Virus record (IMG/VR): IMGVR_UViG_3300044825_002433
Location: 1-59,195 of that record
From: a virus
Taxonomy: Duplodnaviria > Caudoviricetes
DNA length: 59,195 nt
Strand: one strand, 5' to 3'
The stretch's first letter is position 1; every line of letters begins with the position of its first letter. The notes under the pieces were generated by a model. It ran no database searches and was not told the DNA's origin. It saw only the letters and a program-made list of their open reading frames with translations. This document shows, piece after piece, positions 2,239-59,195 of this stretch. Position numbers and translations under genes: made by a program.

Positions 2239-2765
2239 TTAAGTCCGTAATCGGCGATTCCACCACGGTTGCCTCGTGGTTAGATTCGCTCGATAAAGCT
2301 CAAAAAGACGCGTTTGTCTTTTACGCAAAAAACTCCACCAGTGACATTGAAGCTTACCTCTACGCTCGGTTTCTCCAACCAGGCTATGCGGGTAGCATCT
2401 CAGATTTGACCGCGTGGGTCCAAGAGAAGTACCCCAAAGAAGACCTCCGCAAAGTCTTGCTTAGGGAAATCGACTCCCTGCAGCAAGATATTGCAGAAGT
2501 TAGAGATATGGTAGTGAAGGGTATGTTAGACCCTGCTACGTCTGCTACTAAAGTTTCGGCTCTTCAGAAAGAGCTTCGCAGCCACATTCAAGCTGTTCGA
2601 GCTATTTCGGATGGTGTCGATCGCCGAGGATTGTTACTGGCTGGCGCCGATAGATGTCTGCGAGAGTTGATGCAAACATTCGACGGCCAGCCTACGCTTC
2701 AGTCTTTACTCGAAGACTCCTCGTTGATTGTCTGGTCAACGATCGAACGAGAAGAAAAAAGCTAA
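2235..2765 (+). CDS. Hypothetical helical protein
   Basis: 176 aa, ATGA overlap with upstream stop. Confidence 0.6.
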   Translation: MIKSVIGDSTTVASWLDSLDKAQKDAFVFYAKNSTSDIEAYLYARFLQPGYAGSISDLTAWVQEKYPKEDLRKVLLREIDSLQQDIAEVRDMVVKGMLDPATSATKVSALQKELRSHIQAVRAISDGVDRRGLLLAGADRCLRELMQTFDGQPTLQSLLEDSSLIVWSTIEREEKS

Positions 2766-3847
2766 GTCACTCGTTCCAATCGCTTCATAATTTGCTCTAA
2801 CGGACAGCGGAAAACACCCATATAGGCGTCATTAACTCCTAGAGGCATGACTAACTGGTCGTTCTCCAAATGGGCGCTGAACGGAAGGATGACCGCAGGC
2901 TGCGTGGACATCGGAGATCCTTGGTAATTGGTCCAGCTAATAAGTTTGTCGTTCAGAGATCCGCTGAACAAAGGTTCTTTAATTGTATATAAGACTTTTT
3001 TAAAGTCTTTATCTACGATATATGCCCCTAAATGGTATTGCAGGTATTGCATACCATCTGGTTTATATTGCATATGCTTCCAGTGGTAGAAGATCAAATG
3101 CCCGTAACCAAGGTTGATGGGCGCTGTCGAGTTGAATGTTGGTGTCTTACCAGTAGTCTCATCTAAGACTGATGTGTCTACTGTAAGAGCCTCGCCGGAT
3201 TCTCTTTCGATTATCAGCGGTCTTGTGGCATACAGACAATGGAGTGAGTCCTTATGTGAGAAAAAGCACCAGTTTTTCTCTGTAGCTTTCTTATTCCAGT
3301 TGTTGCCTATTGGAGGGATTGTTGCTTGAACTGCGTTTAGGTGTTCATCGACGTAGCAAACAACAACCTTGGGTTGCTGGAAGATGAAATTTTGTTTGGT
3401 GTCGAAACGACTTGCGTACGTCGAGGCTACAAATTGAACGTATAAATTGTTGTCTGGTCCGATAAACAGTCTCGGATCTTCGTAGCTCAACCGGTGTTTT
3501 TTAGGTCTTAGCTTTTTGGCGCCTAATATTGTGTCGTCTTCAGCCAGTATACCAATATAAATATCCGTAGGTTGGTCATTTAAGTAGAAATACTTGGAGT
3601 CGTATCGGAATCCAAAGGGCTCTGTTTGTCCGCGCCACGCGATGTATGTCGTTCCTTCGTGCCGCACCAAACTGGGGCTGAAGTTGAACAGCGTGCCCCG
3701 TGGCAACCCTTTTTTGATTCGAGTGAAGGTTCCGCCAAGCTTCTCTGCTTGAGCGTAGATATTGGGCACCCCCTCTTCTTCTCTCTTGTTGGGATACAGG
3801 ACGTCGCTATATGCGTACCAATAGCGGTGTGTCGTTTGCGTGCTCAT
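2762..3847 (-). CDS. Beta-propeller glycosidase/glycoside phosphorylase-like protein (GH130-like)
   Basis: FNFSPS, YEDPRLF and EKNWCFF motifs; coupled to the GT4 gene. Confidence 0.6.
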   Translation of the reverse strand: MSTQTTHRYWYAYSDVLYPNKREEEGVPNIYAQAEKLGGTFTRIKKGLPRGTLFNFSPSLVRHEGTTYIAWRGQTEPFGFRYDSKYFYLNDQPTDIYIGILAEDDTILGAKKLRPKKHRLSYEDPRLFIGPDNNLYVQFVASTYASRFDTKQNFIFQQPKVVVCYVDEHLNAVQATIPPIGNNWNKKATEKNWCFFSHKDSLHCLYATRPLIIERESGEALTVDTSVLDETTGKTPTFNSTAPINLGYGHLIFYHWKHMQYKPDGMQYLQYHLGAYIVDKDFKKVLYTIKEPLFSGSLNDKLISWTNYQGSPMSTQPAVILPFSAHLENDQLVMPLGVNDAYMGVFRCPLEQIMKRLERVT

Positions 3848-5016
3848 TCTTGGAGGTCCGAAATGACTTGATTAAAACCGGCGGCCACGGATTCCCAACG
3901 ATATTCTGGCCGCTGGGTCACAGCGTAACATGCTGAAGCTACTTCATCATAGAGATTTTTGTTGTAGTACAGTCCGTTTAAAGCTTCTACAACTTTATCT
4001 ACGTCCACAAGTCCACGTTCAACGCCGAGGTCTTTTTCCACGATCCACGTGGACACATCGACGAGCTCAGCGGCGTCAGACCAAATGTCTCGACAGGCTG
4101 TGTGATTTGGAACCACTTGGGGTTTTCGGCAACTCGCGTGCTCAAAACTCACCAAGCCCCAACCTTCGCCATCAGCTGTGTTCAGACCTACGTCGGTCGC
4201 GTTATAGATCTTATTTAGGTATTCGTCTGGCGGTGCTGCCATGTAGTTCATGTGCTCATTCGTAATAATGAGCCTTTGTTGTTCTTTAATTCCGTTCAGC
4301 TCCATCTCGCGTTTAAACAGAGGGACGATGTCCCACCCCATATCTTTTGCACCCATGTGTGCGTAGAGCATCGCATCGGGTTTGTCTTTTGCGAACCTGG
4401 CAAATGCCTTAATGGTTAGATCGATTCGTTTGCGCGGCTGATTCCGATTTGCATTCAAGACTATGAATTTGTCTGTCGGGAGGCCGAGCTGTCGGCGGGC
4501 TTCGTCACGATCCATAGGCGTGAAGCGGCCCGTATCCACACCATGGGGGATGACCGCGAGTTTCGAAACCTCTGTTTTGTGCGCGAGGATTCGATTCGCA
4601 GACTCAGGTGTAAAAGTGATTGCTAAATCCCAGTATTTTAAGTTTTCAAACATGTCAGAAAAGTACATCTGACTGTCGATTGGGAAGTAGGCGACAAACT
4701 TAAATTTGTGCGTGTGCTTCTGGAATTGGCAGCGCTCCCAGAACTGGTTCACCATCCAGATGTCGTTTAGACAGAAAATAAAATCCGGGCGCTCTATATC
4801 GATAATCTCAGGCACACGTGGCAGACCGAATCGATCGGGGCAGTGCACTGTCCCTGCCGGATAGATCTTGTACGGATAATCGTGCGGGTCTCCTGCGTAG
4901 TTGATGCCTAAAACAACTACTTCGTGTTCTCGACTAAGATACTCCAGCACACTGTGTGTTACTCTTGCAAATCCTGTGTTGCTGCAGGCGTCTCCATACC
5001 AGAGAATTTTCGCCAT
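3844..5016 (-). CDS. GT-B fold glycosyltransferase (GT4-like)
   Basis: TGFARV, IPHGVD, NRNQPRKRID, EGWGLVSFE (E-x7-E). Confidence 0.85.
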   Translation of the reverse strand: MAKILWYGDACSNTGFARVTHSVLEYLSREHEVVVLGINYAGDPHDYPYKIYPAGTVHCPDRFGLPRVPEIIDIERPDFIFCLNDIWMVNQFWERCQFQKHTHKFKFVAYFPIDSQMYFSDMFENLKYWDLAITFTPESANRILAHKTEVSKLAVIPHGVDTGRFTPMDRDEARRQLGLPTDKFIVLNANRNQPRKRIDLTIKAFARFAKDKPDAMLYAHMGAKDMGWDIVPLFKREMELNGIKEQQRLIITNEHMNYMAAPPDEYLNKIYNATDVGLNTADGEGWGLVSFEHASCRKPQVVPNHTACRDIWSDAAELVDVSTWIVEKDLGVERGLVDVDKVVEALNGLYYNKNLYDEVASACYAVTQRPEYRWESVAAGFNQVISDLQE

Positions 5017-5070
5017 TCCTGAAGTAGCATTTAGGTACGGTCACTATAGCGACACTAGCAACTTACTAAC

Positions 5071-6591
5071 ATGCCAAGCCGGGAAACCTTTGCTTATCGC
5101 CGTAACGCCCAAATGAAGGCATTACGTGCTCAAGAGAGTACAGGTTTGGCTATTGAGACTATATACACTAAAGCTGCTGATGATTTCCATACTTTCTGTA
5201 CGTTGCTAGATAAACCCCCAGCGCCCCATATGCTGGAGTGGCACGATCACTTGATAACACATGAGAGTAATAAGTATCTATTAGATATTGCTGGACCAAA
5301 CCTTGATATTCTAGCGCCGAGAGGTTCGGCCAAGTCTACCGTACTTAATATGTTCACTGCATGGTGTATAGGACGTCATACTAGTGCAAAACGACCGTTG
5401 CAGATTATTTATGTCAGTTACAACATCGCCACGGCAATTCCAAAGTCTCGGATCATTCGGCAGATCGTGGATTCCCCAGATTTCCGGAAGATTTTCCCCA
5501 TGTGCCGACTAAAGCCTGGAATGCAGTCGGACATCGGTTGGTCTATTGATTATGAGTACGCAGGTATCCCAAGACTAGGTGATGAAGAATTTACTCTCCG
5601 TGCCGCAGGATTGCGCGGCAGTATCACGAGTAAACGTGCTCACTTGGTATTAGTCGATGACCCTGTTAAGAGTTCTGCCGACATCAAGAACCCCACGATT
5701 AGAGCCGAAATGGATACTAACTGGAGTAGTGTCATCTCTCCCATTATTTTTGAAGGGGGTCGCGCGGTGTGCCTCGGCACTCGCTTCCATCCTTTAGATA
5801 TCCACCGGTCGATGTTTATTCCGGAAAAGGGTTGGAAACAGGTTACGCAAGAAGCGCTTACTTATGACGACAACGGAAATCCAAAAAGTTACTGGCCTTC
5901 GCAGTGGTCAGTTGACTACTTGCTGCAGCAGAAGGAATTAGATCCCGTTGCTTTCTGTTTTCAGTATCAGCAACAGCCCGTGGCGACTTCCGATCTTGTT
6001 GTCTCGCCAGATTTGCTCGTAAAAGGAGAGGTCGTTACTGAATTCGATTCGTTGGCTGTCGGTATTGACTTATCTGCTAGTAAAAACGAAACAAGCGACT
6101 ACACGGCGTTTGTGTTAGGTGGAAGGCTTAAGGATAAATACTACATTATCGATGCGCATCAGTGTCGTTCAATCGGTAATTTGGAGAAGATCGATTTATT
6201 GTGCGATATGTTGTTGGAGTGGGGTATCCTTACGCAACATGACGGGCAGCTGATGCCTACATACTCCACGGTGACCCTTGTGGTTGAATCTGTTGCGTAC
6301 CAAGCTTCGTTGGCTGCGGATCTCAGACGAGTCTTGGTTAACGAACGGGAATTAGGCAACCTCCACATCCACGAGATCAAAGGTTTCCGGGGAGATAAGA
6401 TTGCACGATTCCGAGGCACTCTAGGTCTACTGGAAAATAAGAAGGTTACGTTTAACAAATACCGTAAGTTTGATGCGTTGTTTGATCAGCTAATTAATGT
6501 GGGCGCTACGGCGCACGATGACCTGTTGGATGCGTACGTTTGGCTGGTCACGTTCCTCCAACGTCGAGGGGAGTTTTCAATTGAATACTGA
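5071..6591 (+). CDS. terL: Terminase large subunit
   Basis: Walker A APRGSAKST, Walker B VLVDD, GTRFH coupling motif, nuclease GIDLS and HDDLLDA. Confidence 0.92.
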   Translation: MPSRETFAYRRNAQMKALRAQESTGLAIETIYTKAADDFHTFCTLLDKPPAPHMLEWHDHLITHESNKYLLDIAGPNLDILAPRGSAKSTVLNMFTAWCIGRHTSAKRPLQIIYVSYNIATAIPKSRIIRQIVDSPDFRKIFPMCRLKPGMQSDIGWSIDYEYAGIPRLGDEEFTLRAAGLRGSITSKRAHLVLVDDPVKSSADIKNPTIRAEMDTNWSSVISPIIFEGGRAVCLGTRFHPLDIHRSMFIPEKGWKQVTQEALTYDDNGNPKSYWPSQWSVDYLLQQKELDPVAFCFQYQQQPVATSDLVVSPDLLVKGEVVTEFDSLAVGIDLSASKNETSDYTAFVLGGRLKDKYYIIDAHQCRSIGNLEKIDLLCDMLLEWGILTQHDGQLMPTYSTVTLVVESVAYQASLAADLRRVLVNERELGNLHIHEIKGFRGDKIARFRGTLGLLENKKVTFNKYRKFDALFDQLINVGATAHDDLLDAYVWLVTFLQRRGEFSIEY

Positions 6592-13772: not shown

Positions 13773-14765
13773 ATGTACGTACCTTTAAGCAATTGGCGAT
13801 ACGACACTAATCCCCATCGATTAGGTAGTGGACCTAATCACGAATCTTTTGTAGTTGTTACCTTTCCTGAGGAGGACCCCTCGGGTTTTGCTTACTTTAT
13901 TTCGGAAGACGACTCAAACGGTATTTTACTTTTTTCTTCCGAGTCTTCTAGTCCTTTTGTTTCCGAGACCGCGGGTATTGCAGAGGTCTACAGCCGTTGG
14001 GGGACGTCTCCATTAAACACATATAAAGGCCTGTACTTTGGTGTTAATGATGTCGGTTTGGATTCCGGGGTGAAGACTCCGGGTCCTCCGACTCTTTACG
14101 ACTATTTGGTCTTCGGTTTGGAGAATGGTGACATTCTCGGAACGGAAGATTTTAACGAGTTAGGGCTTTACCCTCTTTGGGGCATCACCACAGCGTGGCG
14201 GCAAGTCCCCCCTGCACCTGCTGGTTTTTGGACTAATTATCAGAATGTCGATTACGATCCCACGAATGCGTTAAGTAGTTACGAGGGGTACCGAGGGTTA
14301 ACAACTACCCGGATTAACAACGCCAAGGTTTCGACATCCTTTGGTCCGCAGTACGGTCTACGAACATCCGGAAAATATACCTATTTTAATGGGGTTGCGC
14401 CTTCGTCTCAGAATTACACACCGTATAACACGCCTGACAGCAACACAAGTGCTCAAGGGTACACCGGAGGTGGGGTTACTCATGGGCGCTTGGAAGGCGG
14501 CATCCTTACAAACCCCACTGGAGATACGTCAGGTTCCCGTGCTTCGTGGGTTTATAACCCGCCTGTGTACTGTAAAACCTTCACCGAGACCGTTCGAGCG
14601 GCTTCGCCTGGTGTGATGGGCCCTGCGCTCCGGTATATCTATCGAGGTAAAGCGGGTTCTTATGTATCTAACTTCGGTTCCATTTATCACCAAGCTCCTG
14701 AAGGTGTTCGCAGTATGGTTCGGACCTTTAGTGCGTCTGTTAATTCCAGTAATCAGAGAAGTTAA
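13773..14765 (+). CDS. Hypothetical virion structural protein
   Basis: 330 aa, G/S/T/Y-rich, directly upstream of capsid gene. Confidence 0.55.
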   Translation: MYVPLSNWRYDTNPHRLGSGPNHESFVVVTFPEEDPSGFAYFISEDDSNGILLFSSESSSPFVSETAGIAEVYSRWGTSPLNTYKGLYFGVNDVGLDSGVKTPGPPTLYDYLVFGLENGDILGTEDFNELGLYPLWGITTAWRQVPPAPAGFWTNYQNVDYDPTNALSSYEGYRGLTTTRINNAKVSTSFGPQYGLRTSGKYTYFNGVAPSSQNYTPYNTPDSNTSAQGYTGGGVTHGRLEGGILTNPTGDTSGSRASWVYNPPVYCKTFTETVRAASPGVMGPALRYIYRGKAGSYVSNFGSIYHQAPEGVRSMVRTFSASVNSSNQRS

Positions 14766-14856
14766 CAGTCTATTTATCGCTAAGAATGCGACAAGTTACT
14801 GTTCATTCTCTGTTTATCCAGTTAAATTAAGTATGTAGTTTTCGGAGGTTGGCGCT

Positions 14857-17800
14857 TTGTTCGTCGACAACGATTTTCCGAAGCTGCTCGGTGCAGAGCT
14901 CTATCGTCCGCATCAATAGGTGCCTAGATAATTAAAGTTATCTAGAAAACCTCGTGAATTGCTGGAACCCTTCTTCCAGTGCTCGCTAACCCTTCGGGGG
15001 AACCTTGAAAATTAGACCCAGTAACTTCTGGGCGTTATGTAAGACCTCTTCTGAGCACGCAGAGGTCGAGGGAATCAGCAGCGAAGCCGTGTGGGAACAT
15101 ACGGAACGTTCAGAGACTAGATGAAGTAATCCAGAACGGATGAAACATCCAAGAGCGCGAGGCTCCTAAACAGGTAATGCTGTAGGAGATGATATAGTCC
15201 GAGCTTACGCGATAGCAAAGCGTAAGAGCTGGAAGATAAAGAGCTTCCAGGATAACAAACTGCCTGCGTACGTTGTAGAGATGGCTGCTGAGCCTGTAGT
15301 TGTTCACGATTTTAGTAAACAACCAGGCCAAACTGTGCAGCTGGACAGATATCGCTTCTGGGGTAATCCCGGTAGCAAGGAGTCACGCGAGCGTACTGCT
15401 GAGCAGACCATTGGTACTGCAAACAGCAGGAACATCGTAAAGGATAAAGTTCTTGTGACTCTTCGTGAGTACACAGGTCCTGCAGATCCTAGTGATCCTA
15501 CACAGCCTAGTACTTTTAAGATTGCTAAAACCTTGGCCCTCGCTTGAGAAATCAGGTGATGCGCACTCCGTGAATTGCTGGAACCCCTCCTGACGTTTTA
15601 TTATGTCCGGGAAATCAGCAGCCGAGCTTGATGAGTAATCATCTTGAAGGTTCAACGACTAGGGTTGGCGGTTGTACGCTTGACCTGTTGCCTAGTGCGG
15701 ATCAGGCTTTTCTAAAAGCCTGTCTCTTTGGGGACGGTTGGTTAGGTCTTCAACGCAAAAAATACGTACACCTACGTATAGGTCACTCAGCTAAACAACT
15801 TAACTGGCTGACCTACAAAGCTAAGAAGATAAACCAAATACTAAATAAAGATAGAAAAATTTTAGGGCCTTATAAACAATCCGACGGTTCTAATAAAGAT
15901 AAGATTCACTACTCTTATCTCTATTGTGTTGATGACCACGAATTATTTTCACCGTGGTTTGATCGTTGGTATGAGGTTCCTTCAGTCGGGAAAGTAATAA
16001 AACACGTTACTCCCGATTTTCTATCTGGATTAGGTCTCCCAGAGTTAGCCGTCCTGTGGTGTGATGATGGCTCTGTCAGTTCATCTGATCGAGTTACAAA
16101 ACATTACCTTAAAGATGGAACTCTTAGAGAATATCCGTACGTAGAAGCGCAAGGTCAGATTGCCCTATGCTCTTTAGATTATGAAGAGCACCAGCTTGTA
16201 AGAGAGTGGCTTTATTCCATAACAGGCGTAAAGTGGCGCTACTCTCCTAGAAGCAAGGAAAATAGGGCTACCTTAAACATTGGAAAAAGGGCTTTACGCG
16301 AATTTCTACCGCTCATCGCCCCTCATATTCCTTCGTTTATGGCGTATAAAGTCGATTCCTCCCACTGCCGGATACGGTAAAGGAGGAGACCCCACGAGCG
16401 CGGAGCATCCAAACAGGTGAAGCTGTGGATGATGATATAGTCTGAACTTACGGGATGGTAAACCGTAAGATCTAGAGGATAAAGAGCCTCTAGGGTAACA
16501 ACTTGAGGGAAACTCTGATTACCGCCCAACGTTTACTGTTGGATACAGGTAATCTGACTGCTTTCCATCAATCCATCGGGTCTCTGACTCTTTTGGATGA
16601 CTACACACCTGTGGTCGCTTAGCTAGAAACAGTTAAGGCAATTTAGGGTGAATTGCTGGAAGCCCTTCCCCCTTCAGCAAGGGAAAAGGATTGTGCACCA
16701 CAACGTAATCGGTAACGATAGGCGTGACGGTTTAAAAAACACAACTCCGCATGGGTAATCAGCAGCCAAGCCGGAGAATATACGCTCTGGAAGGTTCAAC
16801 GACTAGATCCCGAGAGGAAACTCAGTAACGGATCCACGAGTGCCCTATACCTGACCTTCGACAACAAAAAAGAGATCCCTCTTTCGAAGTAAACAAGGAA
16901 CATCTTCACTGGCGTTAGCGTAAATAAGCTCACCGAAGTGTAAGGCGTTCTTAGAATACATTCGAAGGTTATACTCTTTATCTACTCCATCTAGAGTGGG
17001 GTAGATATGTTCCTTGTTTAAGAATTCTTTTAATTGTTCGGCTAACAGCTTGCTGCCTGTCGTTATTTTTGCTTCTATAGAGTTTTTCCTTTTGGAAATA
17101 GAACCGTTTCCATCGAAATACCCTCGAAGCCAAAAAATAAAAAGGCTGTGCGGCAGTTTAGGAGCTTCAACAATTAAAGATTTTTTCGGAGGAACTCCGG
17201 CTTTCATTAGATGAACTGCAGCATTTTTTGCTGTTAGTTTTATTTGCCATAAGTTATTTGTTTCGCGCTCTTTGCGGAGTAAACCAGGGTAACCTAAGTC
17301 TTCTGCAAAATGTTCAAGCAAGTAGCTGTCTGCTTCTTTTAAAGCTATGGCAAATCCTTTTGGCTCATTATGTTCCCGGACGATCCAACCGTCTGCGGCT
17401 ATCAGCCCCAACCAATAAGCTTTACGAGGACTGTCGATGTCCGAAAAAAAGTTTTCATTAGCTCCGCTCTTTCGGTAGCTAAAGACTCTTTTTGCTCCGG
17501 GCTTTGCCTCGTAAACATCGCTATACTTTCGTTCGCCTTTCTTCTGCGCGTATGAGAGTACTCCGTGCTTCTTACGAGCATGGGTGGCGGCTGTTCTGGA
17601 CAAGCCAAAAGATCTAGAAATTTCCGCGTCTGAATACAAAGAAGTCAACTCATCCAGTTCCTCTTTTGTCAGATCGGTTAGAGCCCGCTCAGTCACGTCG
17701 AAGAAGGTAAAGATATAGTCTAACACTGCTCGATGATAAAGAGCAGTCGATCGGATAAAGAGCCGATTGGTCTCTTATGAGATTTTTGAGACAGGCGCTG

Positions 17801-19607
17801 GCGTGATCGGGTGTTCATTAATGAACTCCTGAAAGCCGTATCTAAGGGTCAGTCTTCTGACTCTCAGGGTGGTTACTACTATCCTGGTGACCTCGCTGTT
17901 GGTGCTTTAACCTACAGCAACGCCGAACAAGCCAAGTTCGACGTCAAGGACGACCTGCTGCGTGTGGTCAAGAGCCTCCGCAAACGGAACGTCCCCACCT
18001 ACCAAGACGGGTTCTATCGCTGCGTTTGCGATCCAACCTTCTTGCTGCACCTGCGCCAAAACAGCGACTTCCGTGAAGTTGCTCGTTATCCCGGCAATGG
18101 GCAGATCAACCCGCTCATGTCTTCGATGCAGCCTAACGCTGCCATCTACATGGGCCAAGGTTTCGGCCAAGCCACTTTCGTGGCGGGCGAACCCATCATG
18201 CCTAAACAAACCTGGGCCTGCGCGGCGTGAGTCGCGTAGCAAACGGGGTGAATTCAGGGAACCCCTCCTTAAATAAAGGGGAATCCTGAGCCAAGCCGAC
18301 TGAGGAATCGGTCGGAAGGTGCAACGATCAGGAGTCGAGTCCAGACCGGACAGTAATACTCCCACGAGCGCCCCGCTACTCAGATGCGTTTAGCCACAGC
18401 AAAGCTTCTACTCGCTTTCTAGGGATACATACTTCTTGGTTAATCTCATACAACCAAGATAGTACTTCTTTCGGTTTTTTCCCGAAAGTGATTGTATAAA
18501 AAGGTTTCTGAGATTTCAGAAGTTTTTCTGTAATCGAGCAAGAAACTTTAAACTCTTCGGATACCCAGCTATTCCAGATAGCTATAAGGTCCATTGAGCA
18601 AGAACCAAAATTTAATGTTTTGGTTTGGTTTTTTATACAACCATCTCCATCTAAAAGTCCTCTCAAATAATGAGGACGCAATTCCTTGGAAAGACCAGTG
18701 TAAGCTTTATTTTTTGTTGTGTCTTCTGTTATTCCAAAACGTCTTAAACAATCTACTAATACACGGTTGTATACTCTCAACCGTCCGTAACTGGTGTTGT
18801 TTTTGTCTCCTCTGGAATATATAGCTACTTTAGAAGCACTTTTGAGTTCCACAGCTAGTGTTTCGAGGACACAATAATCAGGTTCTTTAAGTTCTATGCT
18901 CAAAAATTTATTTTTGTCATAGCTCAAACAACCGTCTGTGGCTATTAATCCAAGGAAATATGCTTTTCTTGGTGTATCTATCTCGGCAAAATACAAACTT
19001 TCGGGTGAATCTAAATTTTTGTGAGGAGTTCCTTCTCCTGGCAGTAGTATCTCGCCCGTAAGCCGACCTTGACGACTTTCTGTTTTTTCGGTAAAGGACC
19101 GTATCCCGTATTTTTTCCTTAGAGAAAAAACCGTGGATACAGCCAAATTTAGTTGTTTGGCAATCTGAGTATCTGAAAATTGGAAAGTTAAAGTTTCTAA
19201 AACTTTTGGGTCGACTGTAACTTTTTTGCCTTGAGCCATGTGAGTAGATGAGATGATCTGAGCTGCATCAATGGGAAAGATGCAGATCTAGGGGATAAAG
19301 AGCCCCTAGGATAACACACCTGACGGGTTTCGTGTTCGAAGGAGTGCGCTTTTTCGAGTCCACCAACATGCCTTCGCAGTCTCAGACTGCAACTATCGGT
19401 GGTTCTGCCGCTTCTTACGAAGCTGCAATTGGTATGTTCTTCGGTCCTCAGAGTGTTGGCGTCGGCATCGGCGGTAACAACGCTCAGGTTCTTTTGAACA
19501 ACAATGACGACTTCAGCCGTTTCATCATGATGATTTGGAGCCTGTACGCAGGTTTCGAACTTCTGAACGCTGATTTCGCCACCATCGCTTACTCCTTTAA
19601 CGCTTGA
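14857..19607 (+). CDS. Major capsid protein, five exons: join(14857..14913,15263..15526,16506..16602,17791..18203,19323..19607), 371 aa
   Basis: GGAGG RBS then TTG; spliced frame is uninterrupted: MFVDNDFPKLLGAELYRPH|PAYVVEM...TFKIA|RETLITAQ...LDDY|RRWRDRVF...EPIMP|TGFVFEGVRFFEST; HK97/N4-gp56-like features (PGQTVQLDRY, FEGVRFFES). Confidence 0.85.
14914..15262 (+). ncRNA. Group I intron 1 (349 nt, no ORF)
   Basis: P GAATTGCTGGAA, Q AATCAGCAG, R TTCAGAGACTA, S GATATAGTC; P1 GCAU/GUGC with U-G; P10 CCU/AGG; terminal G 15262. Confidence 0.92.
15527..16505 (+). ncRNA. Group I intron 2 (979 nt) with sense-strand endonuclease
   Basis: P/Q/R/S present; P1 GCU/GGC; P10 AGG/CCU; terminal G 16505. 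Confidence 0.9.
15628..16380 (+). CDS. LAGLIDADG homing endonuclease (intron 2)
   Basis: ACLFGDGWL and AVLWCDDGSV motifs; start codon uncertain. Confidence 0.85.
   Translation: MMSNHLEGSTTRVGGCTLDLLPSADQAFLKACLFGDGWLGLQRKKYVHLRIGHSAKQLNWLTYKAKKINQILNKDRKILGPYKQSDGSNKDKIHYSYLYCVDDHELFSPWFDRWYEVPSVGKVIKHVTPDFLSGLGLPELAVLWCDDGSVSSSDRVTKHYLKDGTLREYPYVEAQGQIALCSLDYEEHQLVREWLYSITGVKWRYSPRSKENRATLNIGKRALREFLPLIAPHIPSFMAYKVDSSHCRIR
16603..17790 (+). ncRNA. Group I intron 3 (1188 nt, phase 1) with antisense endonuclease
   Basis: P/Q/R/S present; P1 GACU/GGUC; P10 ACAGG/CCUGU; terminal G 17790. Confidence 0.92.
16845..17726 (-). CDS. LAGLIDADG homing endonuclease with N-terminal HTH (antisense in intron 3)
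   Basis: AYWLGLIAADGWI and WLRGYFDGNGSI; true start may be GTG 17696. Confidence 0.88.
   Translation of the reverse strand: MLDYIFTFFDVTERALTDLTKEELDELTSLYSDAEISRSFGLSRTAATHARKKHGVLSYAQKKGERKYSDVYEAKPGAKRVFSYRKSGANENFFSDIDSPRKAYWLGLIAADGWIVREHNEPKGFAIALKEADSYLLEHFAEDLGYPGLLRKERETNNLWQIKLTAKNAAVHLMKAGVPPKKSLIVEAPKLPHSLFIFWLRGYFDGNGSISKRKNSIEAKITTGSKLLAEQLKEFLNKEHIYPTLDGVDKEYNLRMYSKNALHFGELIYANASEDVPCLLRKRDLFFVVEGQV
18204..19322 (+). ncRNA. Group I intron 4 (1119 nt) with antisense endonuclease
   Basis: P GAATTCAGGGAA, Q AATCCTGAG, covaried P7 GATCA/TGATC; P1 GCCU/GGGC; terminal G 19322. Confidence 0.9.
18376..19239 (-). CDS. LAGLIDADG homing endonuclease with N-terminal HTH (antisense in intron 4)
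   Basis: AYFLGLIATDGCL and HYLRGLLDGDGCI. Confidence 0.88.
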   Translation of the reverse strand: MAQGKKVTVDPKVLETLTFQFSDTQIAKQLNLAVSTVFSLRKKYGIRSFTEKTESRQGRLTGEILLPGEGTPHKNLDSPESLYFAEIDTPRKAYFLGLIATDGCLSYDKNKFLSIELKEPDYCVLETLAVELKSASKVAIYSRGDKNNTSYGRLRVYNRVLVDCLRRFGITEDTTKNKAYTGLSKELRPHYLRGLLDGDGCIKNQTKTLNFGSCSMDLIAIWNSWVSEEFKVSCSITEKLLKSQKPFYTITFGKKPKEVLSWLYEINQEVCIPRKRVEALLWLNASE

Positions 19608-19621
19608 GGAGATAACTAACG

Positions 19622-20494
19622 ATGGCTATCAACCCTAATCAGATTTCGGTTGCCAAGATTTATCCTGGTAACTACACCAACGTCCTGCGTTATTGGCACG
19701 ACCCTAAGTCCGTTACTTATCTCAATGAGAACGGGACTAGCGAAACGCTGATCAACCAGCCCGTTGGCGGCCCCGTGGGCGCAGTTGTTCGCCCCGGTTG
19801 GATTGCTCAACAAGCCATTGGGTATGTTGATCTGTCTTACCAAGCTCTGGGCACCAGCAACCAGCTGGATTACTACGCCACGCCTTACGGCTCTGGCCTG
19901 AACAACGATAACGTTGCGTTCACCAACGCCAACGTCATCATCCCTTCGCCCGACGCCTACAAGGATGTTCGTGCTGACATCACCAACGGTATCACCGTGC
20001 CTTCGGGTGCTTTTGTGTACCGTCTGAGCCTCCGTGTTGACGGCGGTGATGTGGTGTCTAGCGGTGTTGGCGGCGGTTCTGCCACTCCGACTCTGGGTCT
20101 CGGCCCTGCTGTCGGCGTGGGTCTGAACACCACCCCCACCCCCAGCGGTTTCTTTGCAACCGTTGTTGGCGCAAGCAGCCGCATCGAGAACGGTTCGTTC
20201 AATTCCAGCAATGCCTGGAACATGGCGAACGCACATCGTGTGACTGCCGACACCACCTACAGGCTTTTCGCTGTGGGTAATCTTGGCGGTGCTGCCGCTT
20301 CCGGCCTCGCTCAGGCTTCTGGTGTGTACGATCCTCGTGCTCGTGCCGGTCGTCTTAGCGGTAAGGACAAGGCACTCGCTATTTGCGAAGTGTGTTGGCT
20401 GGTTCCCGACGAAGCTCCTACTCGTTCCGATCTGGCTCTGCAGCCTGCCGGCATCATCGAGTCCAACGTGTACACCTCGACCAGTCCTTCCTGA
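19622..20494 (+). CDS. Putative minor capsid/decoration protein
   Basis: GAGGAG RBS, directly after capsid gene, strongly biased codons, beta-rich. Confidence 0.6.
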   Translation: MAINPNQISVAKIYPGNYTNVLRYWHDPKSVTYLNENGTSETLINQPVGGPVGAVVRPGWIAQQAIGYVDLSYQALGTSNQLDYYATPYGSGLNNDNVAFTNANVIIPSPDAYKDVRADITNGITVPSGAFVYRLSLRVDGGDVVSSGVGGGSATPTLGLGPAVGVGLNTTPTPSGFFATVVGASSRIENGSFNSSNAWNMANAHRVTADTTYRLFAVGNLGGAAASGLAQASGVYDPRARAGRLSGKDKALAICEVCWLVPDEAPTRSDLALQPAGIIESNVYTSTSPS

Positions 20495-56789: not shown

Positions 56790-57370
56790 CAGCGAATAAG
56801 GTTTTGCCAAGGGTCTTCGTTGGACCCACCTGCGGGCGCCGCCATTGCCGGAGTTGGTGTAGCAGCTTTGACAGCCGCCGATTGAATCATTAACAGTTGT
56901 TGCTTTAAAGCACTATTTTCTTTGATGATTGGTTCGACCCGGCTGTCAGCCCAAGCAGCGGCGTTTGCCGTTAAGCGATCGAGAATGTGATCTGTGTGGG
57001 GGAAGCGGAAGAACACGCCTTCTTGGAGCTCAATCCGTTGACCGTTTTGATTTGCTGCCAAAGCTTCTAAGAACATCAGACCCTTAGAGAGATCTATGTT
57101 GCTTCGCACGCACAGCTGCTCCGGATTTATTACGCCTTTATATTGTTCGTAAAGCTCAGAAAAAACGGCGGATACCCGTGCGGCCTCGGCTACTTCTTGC
57201 TCCTTCTTAGAAGATGCTTCCTTCGCAATAGATGCACCGGCCAGAAGGGATCCAGCGCCAGCGAGCGCCACAGGAAGAGTACTAGGGTTCGCGACCGCAG
57301 AAGAAATGACGACAAGAGCACTGACTCCAGTAAGGGAACTAATTAGATGGTGTTTCAGCAGGTTTGTCAT
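56789..57370 (-). CDS. Hypothetical membrane protein
   Basis: Two N-terminal hydrophobic helices from ATG 57370. Confidence 0.55.
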   Translation of the reverse strand: MTNLLKHHLISSLTGVSALVVISSAVANPSTLPVALAGAGSLLAGASIAKEASSKKEQEVAEAARVSAVFSELYEQYKGVINPEQLCVRSNIDLSKGLMFLEALAANQNGQRIELQEGVFFRFPHTDHILDRLTANAAAWADSRVEPIIKENSALKQQLLMIQSAAVKAATPTPAMAAPAGGSNEDPWQNLIR

Positions 57371-59195
57371 GAGTGTCGAAAGCTGTTTTCCAAACAAGAG
57401 GGTCTGGGTTGGATGCCCACTCCACAGGAGAAGGCAGTCTGGTATCCCCGTGGGAGGCTCGATCCGTAGTCGGATCATAAGGCTTCAAGCGTAGACCAGT
57501 GAACACGGATTTGCCTTGAACAAATTTGGGTCCCACACCTTCGATTTTCAATACGTTGCGGGTTGTTTCCCTGAGTCGATCGACGAATCGAGGTTTGGCT
57601 GAGTGCTTGTACCCGTTCGATTTGCAGAAGTTTACATAGCTCGCATAGAGCTCGCTGTGTGCGTTTTTGACGAACAACCCGCGCTCGCTCTCATCTGTGT
57701 TGGGCCTGAAAGCGCCCCCACCGATAATGTTGTAGCTGTTTGGAGCATACAGAGTGCACTCAGCCAGCCAAGCGACGTATGGGTTGTTGAAGATGAGAGC
57801 TTCGAGGTTCGTTGCGTTGAGCGTGGGAACATGCTTAACCGGGTTCGCCAGCACGTCACGCATTTCCTCAAAAGGCATATCGAGAGCCCAGGTGACCACT
57901 CCGCTGAGTTCCGGGACAAGCTCCCCTTCGACTCGATCTTGGTAGATGTTTAGGAGATCGCGGCGCTGAGATGGAGGCACAACGCGGTCCATGATGATTG
58001 TTAGGCGGCGGCGCTCAAGACCGCTGCTGATGTCTGAGCTTGTGATGTGCTCGTTCGACGCAATACAAACCAGAACCTCAGGCTTAAAGCTGATGACCTC
58101 TTTTCCGTACTTTCGCTCAGCCCGCAGTGTGTCTGAGGCTGATGTGATTTTCTTTAGAACGTCGAGTCGCTTATTGAAGTTTGCTTCGTCTGTCAGCAAC
58201 AGAAGTCGCTTACCGATGAGGTTATGGCACTCGAACTTATTTGTCTCGATGATTTCAAGGTTGCTAGTGTGCGTCGCGGCGAATCCAGCCAAGGCGATCA
58301 GCAGTTGCTGCAGCGTGGATTTGCCGGTACCTCCCGGTCCTACCAAATGCAAGAAGCGCTCCCCGGTTGTGTATCCCGTGAGCAATGCCCGGCAGAATGC
58401 TCGAATGATGATGACTCGCTCTGTGCCTACACAAGAGTCAATCCACTGCAGAAACTTCGGACACTTCGCCGTTTTGTCGTAGGGATACGCGAGGCGGCTA
58501 CGCAGATACAGTTCTTTTTGATTGGCTTCGTCAAACTCGAAAGTCTCTGCGTCCAGCACCCCGTTGGTGAAAGCGATTTTCCCTCGGTTCTTACTCCAGA
58601 TCGACGTGCGTCCGCCGTCGATGGATTTAAGCAGCTTCGCTTTCAGGATGTGGTAGACCGAGCTCACCGTGGATGAGTTGTACCTCGGCAGCACGCCTGC
58701 TGTTACAAACGTATCTAGTGTTTTTACAATCCTACGCTTGATGTGTTGTTCGTCTTGCAGATACCATATTTTCTTATCGGAGTCGTATGTAAAGAACTCA
58801 TCTAGAGACGAATCGAATAAAAATTCTCCTCCGTAGTTATTTACGATAATGTCTGCTACATCGTTCTCTGAGAACTGTCTGTTGTTTTGCTGGATTTGAA
58901 CTAGCTGAGCCGGTGTGTTCGGCACTTCTTTTTCCTCGGTTGCTGTTGTTGATGTTGGTGTTGATGTTGTGTTGCCCGAGTTTGAGATATCAAACTCTGA
59001 AAGCTCTTCGAAAGACAAAACCGAATTAGTCGGTTTGGGCTTCGTGGTCTTGATCTGATCCTTGATTTCCTCAGAGCACAAAGCGTCGAAAGCACGACGG
59101 TTCGTTTTTTTGATTCGTTTCCAACCGGCCAGGTCGCCGTCTTCCGAGGCGATGGCGATGGCTGGCTTTAATTGGCTTGGATCAGTGATGCTGTT
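57339..59195 (-). CDS. D5/P4-family primase-helicase (SF3 helicase part), 5'-truncated by the window
   Basis: Walker A GPGGTGKST, Walker B LLLLTDE, IASN motif C; frame open to 59195. Confidence 0.88.
   Translation of the reverse strand, partial: NSITDPSQLKPAIAIASEDGDLAGWKRIKKTNRRAFDALCSEEIKDQIKTTKPKPTNSVLSFEELSEFDISNSGNTTSTPTSTTATEEKEVPNTPAQLVQIQQNNRQFSENDVADIIVNNYGGEFLFDSSLDEFFTYDSDKKIWYLQDEQHIKRRIVKTLDTFVTAGVLPRYNSSTVSSVYHILKAKLLKSIDGGRTSIWSKNRGKIAFTNGVLDAETFEFDEANQKELYLRSRLAYPYDKTAKCPKFLQWIDSCVGTERVIIIRAFCRALLTGYTTGERFLHLVGPGGTGKSTLQQLLIALAGFAATHTSNLEIIETNKFECHNLIGKRLLLLTDEANFNKRLDVLKKITSASDTLRAERKYGKEVISFKPEVLVCIASNEHITSSDISSGLERRRLTIIMDRVVPPSQRRDLLNIYQDRVEGELVPELSGVVTWALDMPFEEMRDVLANPVKHVPTLNATNLEALIFNNPYVAWLAECTLYAPNSYNIIGGGAFRPNTDESERGLFVKNAHSELYASYVNFCKSNGYKHSAKPRFVDRLRETTRNVLKIEGVGPKFVQGKSVFTGLRLKPYDPTTDRASHGDTRLPSPVEWASNPDPLVWKTAFDTHDKPAETPSN

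Follow-up and report, generated by a model that had tools for sequence, protein, structure and literature searches.

Introns in the major capsid protein (MCP) gene are already known from mycobacteriophage LittleE, for which the available portion of the report describes splicing shown by reverse transcription-PCR and N-terminal sequencing (Pope et al. 2013, PMC3706429). In crAss-like phages of the Delta and Zeta groups, the available text of a genome survey places group I introns in the MCP gene and in other core genes, with one MCP open reading frame (ORF) of the Zeta group divided into five fragments and three of the four intervening segments encoding domains typical of group I introns (Yutin et al. 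2021, PMC7886860). Here we describe four inserts, which very probably are group I introns, in the MCP gene of a freshwater phage. The gene occupies positions 14857 to 19607 of a 59,195-nucleotide (nt) stretch of DNA, referred to below as the window, which is the whole of the IMG/VR virus record IMGVR_UViG_3300044825_002433, a linear, metagenome-assembled sequence with a CheckV completeness of 73%.

Other phage genes with group I introns include td, nrdB and nrdD of phage T4, nucleotide-metabolism genes with subgroup IA2 introns that carry sense-strand GIY-YIG or HNH enzymes, and psbA of cyanophage S-PM2. The orf142 gene of Staphylococcus phage Twort, which Landthaler and Shub are said to have described in 1999, reportedly contains three. 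According to the accessible sections of the respective papers, the DNA polymerase gene of cyanophage Pf-WMP3 is interrupted by an IA2 intron with the endonuclease I-PfoP3I (PMC3428280), and the Jug-phage paper counts 2513 group I introns in 136 genomes (PMC12880540).

A first-pass annotation of the window, made from the sequence alone, had called four introns in a capsid gene exceptional. This was overstated, as capsid-gene introns have been published for LittleE (PMC3706429) and for crAss-like phages (PMC7886860), and the case presented here is a further example of capsid-gene group I introns, not an exceptional first. Neither is the window the extreme case, as a contig from a sister strain (locus L166) has five introns in the same gene.

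Anatomy and identity of the capsid gene

In the list of ORFs the capsid gene appears between 14857 and 19607 as fragments only, as the first-pass annotation had observed. Its four intron coordinates held exactly, as did the frame obtained by removing them: the five joined exons form an open frame of 1116 nt, corresponding to 371 codons and a TGA stop codon, and the introns account for 349 + 979 + 1188 + 1119 = 3635 of the 4751 nt. The closest annotated phage is Synechococcus phage S-EIVl, which has a syntenic, uninterrupted ORF of 383 codons. The parts of the gene are listed here with their matches to the PHROG family phrog_1357 (exons) and to the Rfam model RF00028 (introns).

14844..14848, plus strand: GGAGG resembling a Shine-Dalgarno sequence, 8 nt before the TTG start, read in the sequence
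14857..14913, plus strand: MCP exon 1, 19 codons with TTG start; colinear with the start of the S-EIVl ORF (GTG there)
14914..15262, plus strand: intron 1, 349 nt, ORF-less, after codon 19; RF00028 56.5 bits
15263..15526, plus strand: MCP exon 2, 88 codons; phrog_1357 positions 58-118
15527..16505, plus strand: intron 2, 979 nt, after codon 107; RF00028 25.2 bits
16506..16602, plus strand: MCP exon 3, 97 nt; colinear with the S-EIVl ORF
16603..17790, plus strand: intron 3, 1188 nt, in codon 140 (phase 1); RF00028 50.2 bits
17791..18203, plus strand: MCP exon 4, 413 nt; phrog_1357 positions 175-241
18204..19322, plus strand: intron 4, 1119 nt, after codon 277; RF00028 33.2 bits, partial
19323..19607, plus strand: MCP exon 5, 94 codons and TGA; phrog_1357 positions 249-344

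Exons 2, 4 and 5 match this single family, annotated as 'major head protein', in colinear order, and the genes neighbouring the capsid gene are syntenic with those of S-EIVl. Global alignment of the ligated protein with the S-EIVl ORF gave identity in 256/383 columns (67%) and was gap-free at all four of them, the exon junctions (YRPH/PAYV, FKIA/RETL, LLDDY/RRW and IMP/TGF, with the slash marking the junction). The ligated frame also aligns base-for-base with the 45 uninterrupted full-length alleles found among the 80 closest IMG/VR loci, and hence the alignment to intron-less homologues that had been proposed as a check is colinear and gap-free at the junctions for S-EIVl and for all 45 alleles. 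In the S-EIVl GenBank record (KJ410740.1) the uninterrupted 383-codon capsid ORF (L001:3929-5080) is unannotated; the record instead has a minus-strand coding sequence (locus 3854-4615) and a short plus-strand coding sequence (4610-5080).

Identity and structure were further assessed using L088, a natural uninterrupted near-twin that is 99% identical over exon 4. The L088 protein matches phrog_1357 over nearly its whole length (E 1.3e-22), and had no match in a Pfam search or in a sequence search of the PDB. An AlphaFold model built on 32 aligned relatives (predicted local distance difference test, pLDDT, 83.5; predicted template modelling score, pTM, 0.82) gave HK97-fold phage capsids as top PDB matches, led by cyanophage P-SCSP1u (E 1e-13) and followed by Pan3, N4, GP4 and T7, and it matched the HK97 capsid itself with E 2.4e-9. 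The phrog_1357 matches of the exons and the HK97-fold match of L088 bear out that the fragments belong to a capsid gene. It is the single HK97-fold major capsid gene of a freshwater S-EIVl-like phage, whose host is probably cyanobacterial, and the only capsid gene found in the record.

The window being a metagenome-assembled record, the interrupted gene could be an assembly chimera, or its pieces could be translated separately without splicing. Either is hardly credible, as the exon-intron junctions are independently reproduced in loci L166 and L167 and in DNA run X4 from another study, which has contigs across every one of them with 0-2 mismatches. Furthermore, exons 1 and 3 comprise just 19 and 32 codons and have no start signals of their own, and the frames are shut by stop codons a few codons into each intron.

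Group I intron features of the four inserts

The group I covariance model RF00028 (Rfam gathering score 50 bits), which had been suggested for checking the inserts, matched all four of them and nothing else in the 59-kb record, with introns 1 and 3 above the gathering score. For intron 2 the E-value was 0.0023 when searching positions 14500-20000, and 4.4e-4 over positions 15480-16560. Along 82 nt of its core, intron 4 shares 82% identity with the annotated psbA intron of cyanophage S-CBWM1.

The boundaries show the same regularity throughout. U is the last base of each of the four 5′ exons and G the last base of each of the four introns, and in 35/35 interruptions (4 in the window, 31 in the relatives described below) exactly one of the 1-4 colinear boundary solutions combines U(-1) with G(omega). 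By eye, a short P1 hairpin, in which a U.G pair marks the splice site, can be drawn at the start of each intron, and the guide sequences fit their own exon better than the exons at the other eight insertion sites in this gene family, the observed total being reached by 1/20,000 permutations. The U-G splice pair in P1 and the terminal G that had been reported for each intron were thus found in 4/4, by sequence, by-eye P1 and permutation test. In-frame stop codons are located 1, 6, 6 and 8 codons past the 5′ splice site in the four introns, an arrangement that the available text of Hausner et al. 2014 (PMC3984707) links to letting the ribozyme fold.

The introns share a core, read from the sequence, that consists of CCGUGAAUUGCUGGAA (P3-J3/4-P4), AAUCAGCAGC (P4′-P6), GGUUCAACGACUA (J6/7-P7), CACGAGCGCGGAG (P3′) and GAUGAUAUAGUC (J8/7-P7′). 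In line with the P/Q/R/S elements noted in the first pass, a pattern search showed that P3, P4 (P/Q) and P7 (R/S) are fully paired in 4/4 introns, with compensatory differences between them. P3 is present in five different fully paired 7-bp combinations, P4 is UGCUGG/UCAGCA in most introns and UCAGGG/UCCUGA in intron 4, and P7 is GACUA/UAGUC in most introns, GAUCA/UGAUC in intron 4 and GCAUA/UAUGC in one relative; the patterns used missed P3′ and P7 of the introns at site 30.67 (see below). Covariation extends to P9 and P9.1, for which 83.4% of cells were paired across 21 distinct intron variants, versus 64.6% in shuffles. Both-sided changes occurred in 13/14 pairs, the covariation score was reached by 0/500 shuffles, and sliding the 3′ partner by 1-3 columns left at most 52.6% paired. 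A MAFFT alignment of whole ORF-less introns was dropped because the variable P5 region came out misaligned.

Intron 1 folds at -122 kcal/mol (z = -5.79), with P1, P2, P3, P6, P8, P9 and P9.1 all present in the minimum-energy fold. Introns 1, 3 and 4 have hairpins between P7 and P3′, the position of the ORF in intron 2. Subgroup IA (IA2-like) is typically marked by additional P7.1/P7.2 hairpins in this interval, and by this general criterion the four introns may be subgroup-IA-like; they are probably homologous to each other.

Several features weigh against the reading of the inserts as group I introns. Introns 2 (25.2 bits) and 4 (33.2 bits) score under the Rfam gathering score, and even the natural endonuclease-less version of intron 4 in L166 (265 nt), although matched over the whole RF00028 model, reaches just 46.8 bits. 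The P10 match to the next exon, which had been claimed for every intron, stands for intron 2 (4 pairs by eye) and intron 3 (5 contiguous pairs by eye, with a P1 of 8 bp), and fails for introns 1 and 4, where it is weak with at most 1 pair. Finally, the longest guide match found with a simple script in introns 2 and 4 lies downstream of the splice-site-proximal one, which makes their exact P1 ambiguous. The low scores of introns 2 and 4 are at least partly explained by their large ORF inserts, as indicated by the higher score of the ORF-less intron 4 of L166. Considering these points together with the boundaries and the paired core, the reading of the four inserts as group I introns interrupting the capsid gene is very likely right.

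The same weak points, namely the low-scoring introns 2 and 4 and the poor P10 of introns 1 and 4, together with the lack of direct splicing evidence from a defined infection, would also be in keeping with one or more introns no longer splicing, in which case the allele would be a dead or dying capsid gene of a defective genome. We think this very unlikely, as P3, P4 and P7 remain fully paired with compensatory changes in all four introns, and the low scores have at least in part the explanation given above. Moreover, independent data sets contain this allele again, or its five-intron sister, with an identical protein across strains, the protein is 96-100% identical over exon 4 to that of relatives with only ~85% identical full-length DNA, and no second capsid gene was found in the record. 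Functional group I introns are hence the reading followed below.

Endonuclease genes within the introns

The first-pass annotation, while supported in its structural reading, had remained silent on three LAGLIDADG genes located in introns 2, 3 and 4, two of them antisense to the capsid gene:

15628..16380, plus strand (sense): LAGLIDADG_2 ORF in intron 2, 250 codons from TTG, with an in-frame ATG at 15631; PF03161 43 bits
16845..17726, minus strand (antisense): LAGLIDADG_3 ORF in the P8 loop of intron 3, 293 codons; PF14528 50.6 bits; phrog_4645 E 2.9e-32
18376..19239, minus strand (antisense): LAGLIDADG_3 ORF in the P8 loop of intron 4, 287 codons; PF14528 36.7 bits; phrog_4645 E 1.6e-32

Pfam LAGLIDADG domains were above their cut-offs in all three ORFs (25 bits for PF03161), and inspection by eye located two LAGLIDADG motifs in each protein, with those in the intron 2 ORF being LAGLIDADG-like. 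The ORF of intron 2 sits between P7 and P3′, reading through P6/P7, and also matches phrog_11023. Each of the three introns thus appears to carry an intact, double-motif LAGLIDADG homing endonuclease gene, for which cleavage activity is predicted. A finding that speaks against our interpretation is that no sigma-70-like promoter stood out for the antisense genes, with 3 sites versus 6.4 expected by chance.

LAGLIDADG proteins of organelle introns can act as maturases. With LAGLIDADG genes present in three of the four introns, splicing may require help from a protein, be it a LAGLIDADG maturase or a host factor, instead of being autonomous. We consider such dependence unlikely: intron 1 is ORF-less, and intron 4 is naturally ORF-less in strains with an identical capsid protein, so neither can depend on a protein of its own, and two of the ORFs are antisense and therefore cannot be translated from the precursor RNA. 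Autonomous splicing of the introns remains the preferred reading.

Insertion sites in related capsid genes

A search of IMG/VR with the S-EIVl protein returned at least 597 confirmed related stretches, of which the best 80 were all uninterrupted. The set of relatives used here consists of the 80 IMG/VR loci closest to exon 4 of the window, to which they are 96-100% identical, and this query is biased against finding introns within exon 4. At the DNA level, the full-length uninterrupted alleles of this set are ~85% identical to the window (best 87.6%). The full gene is spanned in 72/80 relatives, of which 45 have no insert and 27 are interrupted. Together with two partial loci that have inserts as well, the 29 interrupted relatives contain 31 introns. 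Locus L086, tallied as partial and uninterrupted, actually begins inside intron 1. RF00028 matched all insertions in the seven interrupted loci that were sampled, with scores of 34 to 78.5 bits. Altogether the window and the 80 relatives have nine insertion sites, given as codon positions:

Site 19: window, L100 and L102
Site 30.67: 8 loci
Site 35.67: 12 loci
Site 36.33: 3 loci
Site 48: 3 loci
Site 51.33: 2 loci
Site 107: window and L102
Site 139.33: window only
Site 277: window only

The capsid gene is an intron hotspot in these related phages. Intron 1 is shared at site 19 with L100, L102 and also L166, and intron 2 at site 107 with L102 and L166, and a search for the exact 5′ ends of introns 3 and 4 found none in IMG/VR besides the window's own record. 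At the fourth site of the window, its U(-1) is a minority synonymous choice among insert-less alleles (6/80), and U(-1) is common in insert-less alleles at the other three sites (48/73, 72/79 and 80/80). A finding that does not favour our interpretation is the lack of significant enrichment of insertion sites in the best-conserved parts of the wider protein family, as 2219/20,000 random sets scored as high.

The endonucleases in these introns belong to two families, with sense-strand LAGLIDADG_2 genes at sites 35.67, 36.33, 48, 51.33 and 107, and antisense LAGLIDADG_3 genes at sites 30.67, 139.33 and 277. Identity between sites is 27-35%, and the intron 3 endonuclease has no close relative in IMG/VR. 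The introns at sites 35.67 and 36.33 encode endonucleases that share 86% identity (L087:2922-3916 and L097:4697-5689), although their insertion points lie 2 nt apart and they differ in their termini and guide sequences; the nuclease gene may have moved between introns, or the insertion site may have shifted.

Five of the sites lie within capsid codons 30-52, where 28 relatives (L087-L156) have one intron each, none has two and the window has none. This one-per-locus pattern would fit mutually exclusive, overlapping endonuclease targets. Ahead of its intron at site 48, the contig L107 shows a break in the capsid match, with a -1 overlap around codons 29-32 (L107:2947), which may be a frameshift or a sequencing error. 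Many library proteins of the capsid family are truncated, some with non-homologous tails, such as P0003 with 117 extra residues after about residue 205. Such truncated proteins (P0003, P0023 and others) were considered as additional insertion sites, and none was counted, as several are adapter or frameshift artefacts; others might mark further sites.

Recent gain and loss among sister strains

The metagenome contig L166 is 99.6-99.8% identical to the window and has five RF00028 matches. Its capsid locus (L166:1083-5950) is a five-intron allele with insertions at sites 19, 51.33, 107, 139.33 and 277, so that 3752 of 4868 nt are intron, and its ligated protein is the same as that of the window in 371/371 residues. 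The fifth intron, located at site 51.33, is 971 nt long and contains a LAGLIDADG_2 ORF. Between 15184 and 18381, the window and L166 show eight differences, all within -5 to +20 nt of the site-51.33 insertion point and, given the identical proteins, all synonymous. The differing tract, corresponding to 15355-15379 of the window, is 25 nt long and co-conversion-like.

Intron 3 is also present in DNA run X4, L166 and L167, and all three lack 18382-19236, the region of the intron 4 endonuclease gene, with 18381 joined to 19237. Directly past this indel (19237-20485), identity between the window and L166 falls from 99.8% to about 96%, as if the nuclease-gene indel were a recombination boundary. 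L086, which is 95-98.5% identical over segments of exons 2, 4 and 5 and 89.5% over a 95-nt segment of exon 3, retains intron 1 and is without introns 2-4. The presence and absence of introns at the same site in close relatives, together with the flanking co-conversion-like tract, indicate that these are mobile introns, selfish elements of a familiar type, which would spread by homing.

Exon-exon joints in RNA libraries

Parts of the stretch are contained in 20 of the 23 runs listed, four of these 20 being RNA libraries. We compared RNA runs X17, X18 and X20 and DNA run X4, all as contigs. One contig of X18 joins 16602 to 17791 with 0 mismatches in 88 + 220 nt, which is the exon-exon joint expected from removal of intron 3, and a second X18 contig passes from exon 4 into exon-5-like sequence. 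In X20, one contig matches from 15263 onwards with 0 mismatches in 152 nt and carries the final 9 nt of exon 1 in front of that match, and another joins 18203 to 19323. DNA run X4 has no exon-exon joint at the four sites. Among the 74-80 IMG/VR alleles compared, the best was 87% identical to the junction 1 segment and 95.1% to the junction 3 segment; the zero-mismatch contigs are thus nearer to the window than any compared allele, which favours spliced RNA of window-like strains as their source.

Other observations on these libraries limit this evidence. The X18 contig with the exact junction 3 also joins 15526 to 16515, with nine variant letters between the two sides, and as it differs in 9 nt after junction 2, it is probably from an allele without intron 2. 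The X20 contig joining 18203 to 19323 has 13 mismatches in 435 nt, and X17 covers mainly intron sequence and two unspliced junctions, without an exon-exon joint. The RNA-library contigs are metagenomic, have no DNA from the same sample and do not come from a known infection, such libraries may contain DNA, and alleles without introns are frequent (45/72 full-length relatives), so that the joints could stem from intron-less relatives. The junctions that were to be looked for in RNA data were found, but cannot be fully separated from transcripts of intron-less relatives, and as evidence of splicing they are suggestive, not decisive.

In X17, a wastewater RNA library, contigs match introns 2 and 4 and then continue into unrelated flanks (loose ends at 15567 and 19316), and one joint connects 15133 to 19274. 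Related introns are probably present in other genes or genomes of that sample.

Neighbouring genes

On the minus strand at 2762-5016 of the window, ORFs for a GH130-like (glycoside hydrolase 130-like) protein and a group 1 glycosyltransferase adjoin the large terminase gene (5071-6591), and a D5-like primase-helicase is encoded at 57339-59081.

A proposed model for splicing and homing

We propose that the capsid gene would be transcribed as a precursor of ~4.75 kb, on which ribosomes would halt at the in-frame stop 1-8 codons beyond each 5′ splice site, leaving each intron to fold, with P1 and its U.G pair at the splice site, then P3-P9. Excision would proceed by two guanosine-initiated transesterifications, and the five ligated exons would then encode the 371-aa capsid protein. 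During mixed infection, the endonucleases may cleave alleles that lack the intron, and a copy of it would be introduced during repair, which would explain the presence/absence polymorphism among near-identical strains.

A more far-reaching scenario, possible but in our view doubtful, is that one intron family and two LAGLIDADG families have radiated to at least nine sites in one gene, with the four- and five-intron alleles serving as weapons in mixed infections and the antisense genes being expressed from early promoters of their own. An endonuclease would then cut a rival's only capsid gene and drag flanking markers along, early antisense expression would separate cutting in time from late capsid transcription and splicing, and capsid introns would influence how strains recombine and replace each other in natural freshwater phage populations.

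The interpretation as spliced group I introns has several consequences. Gene callers see fragments at such loci, and once the introns are recognised, a widespread freshwater phage lineage (at least 597 related IMG/VR stretches) regains its main structural gene. The strains also constitute a data set from a natural population, in which introns and endonuclease genes can be traced as they come and go among near-identical strains, down to a co-conversion-like tract of 25 nt, and they would indicate that a phage can cope with four or five splicing events in the gene needed at the highest copy number. Finally, the nine introns and two endonuclease families may be a source of tools, representing a set of related enzymes whose targets, presumably different and on the scale of 20 bp, all lie in one gene.

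Comparison with known systems

In searches of the main texts of published papers we found nothing on introns in the capsid gene of the S-EIV1 lineage, and papers on PA-SR01, S-SRP01, CL131, Mic1, OM43-phage and Lactobacillus-phage likewise contained nothing on capsid-gene introns. Capsid genes are not mentioned in the available sections of the Hausner 2014 review and of the intron database paper. New here are the phage lineage and a capsid gene with four to five introns, in a record that has no others, as well as the nine sites, the two endonuclease families, one of which is consistently antisense, and unusually clean population evidence of recent gain and loss.

The T4 introns as generally described resemble those of the window in having hairpins between P7 and P3′ (introns 1, 3 and 4 here), in-frame stops past the 5′ splice site, and peripheral loops that hold homing endonuclease ORFs; unlike them, the introns of the window interrupt a capsid gene and carry LAGLIDADG enzymes, two of which are antisense. 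As is reported of Twort orf142, several group I introns are found in one phage gene, with three there and four or five here. Cyanophages S-CBWM1, S-PM2 and Pf-WMP3 are comparable in their cyanophage hosts and group I introns, but have single introns in a photosynthesis or replication gene, with nucleases that are HNH or free-standing instead of LAGLIDADG.

The nearest parallels are in capsid genes. The LittleE gene, as presented in the available part of its description, likewise has an intron following an exon-end U, ending in G and containing a bottom-strand LAGLIDADG-like ORF (PMC3706429). It has one intron, and the phage has actinobacterial hosts, whereas the window has four (five in its sister strain), with splicing predicted from sequence, and two endonuclease families and nine sites are found across its relatives. 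The crAss-like phages also have group I introns in the MCP gene (PMC7886860); the available survey text describes up to 14 introns over many genes, often in genomes with alternative codes, recognised by their protein domains, whereas in the window all introns are in the capsid gene of a phage using the standard code, and are recognised by ribozyme cores, exact boundaries and covariation.

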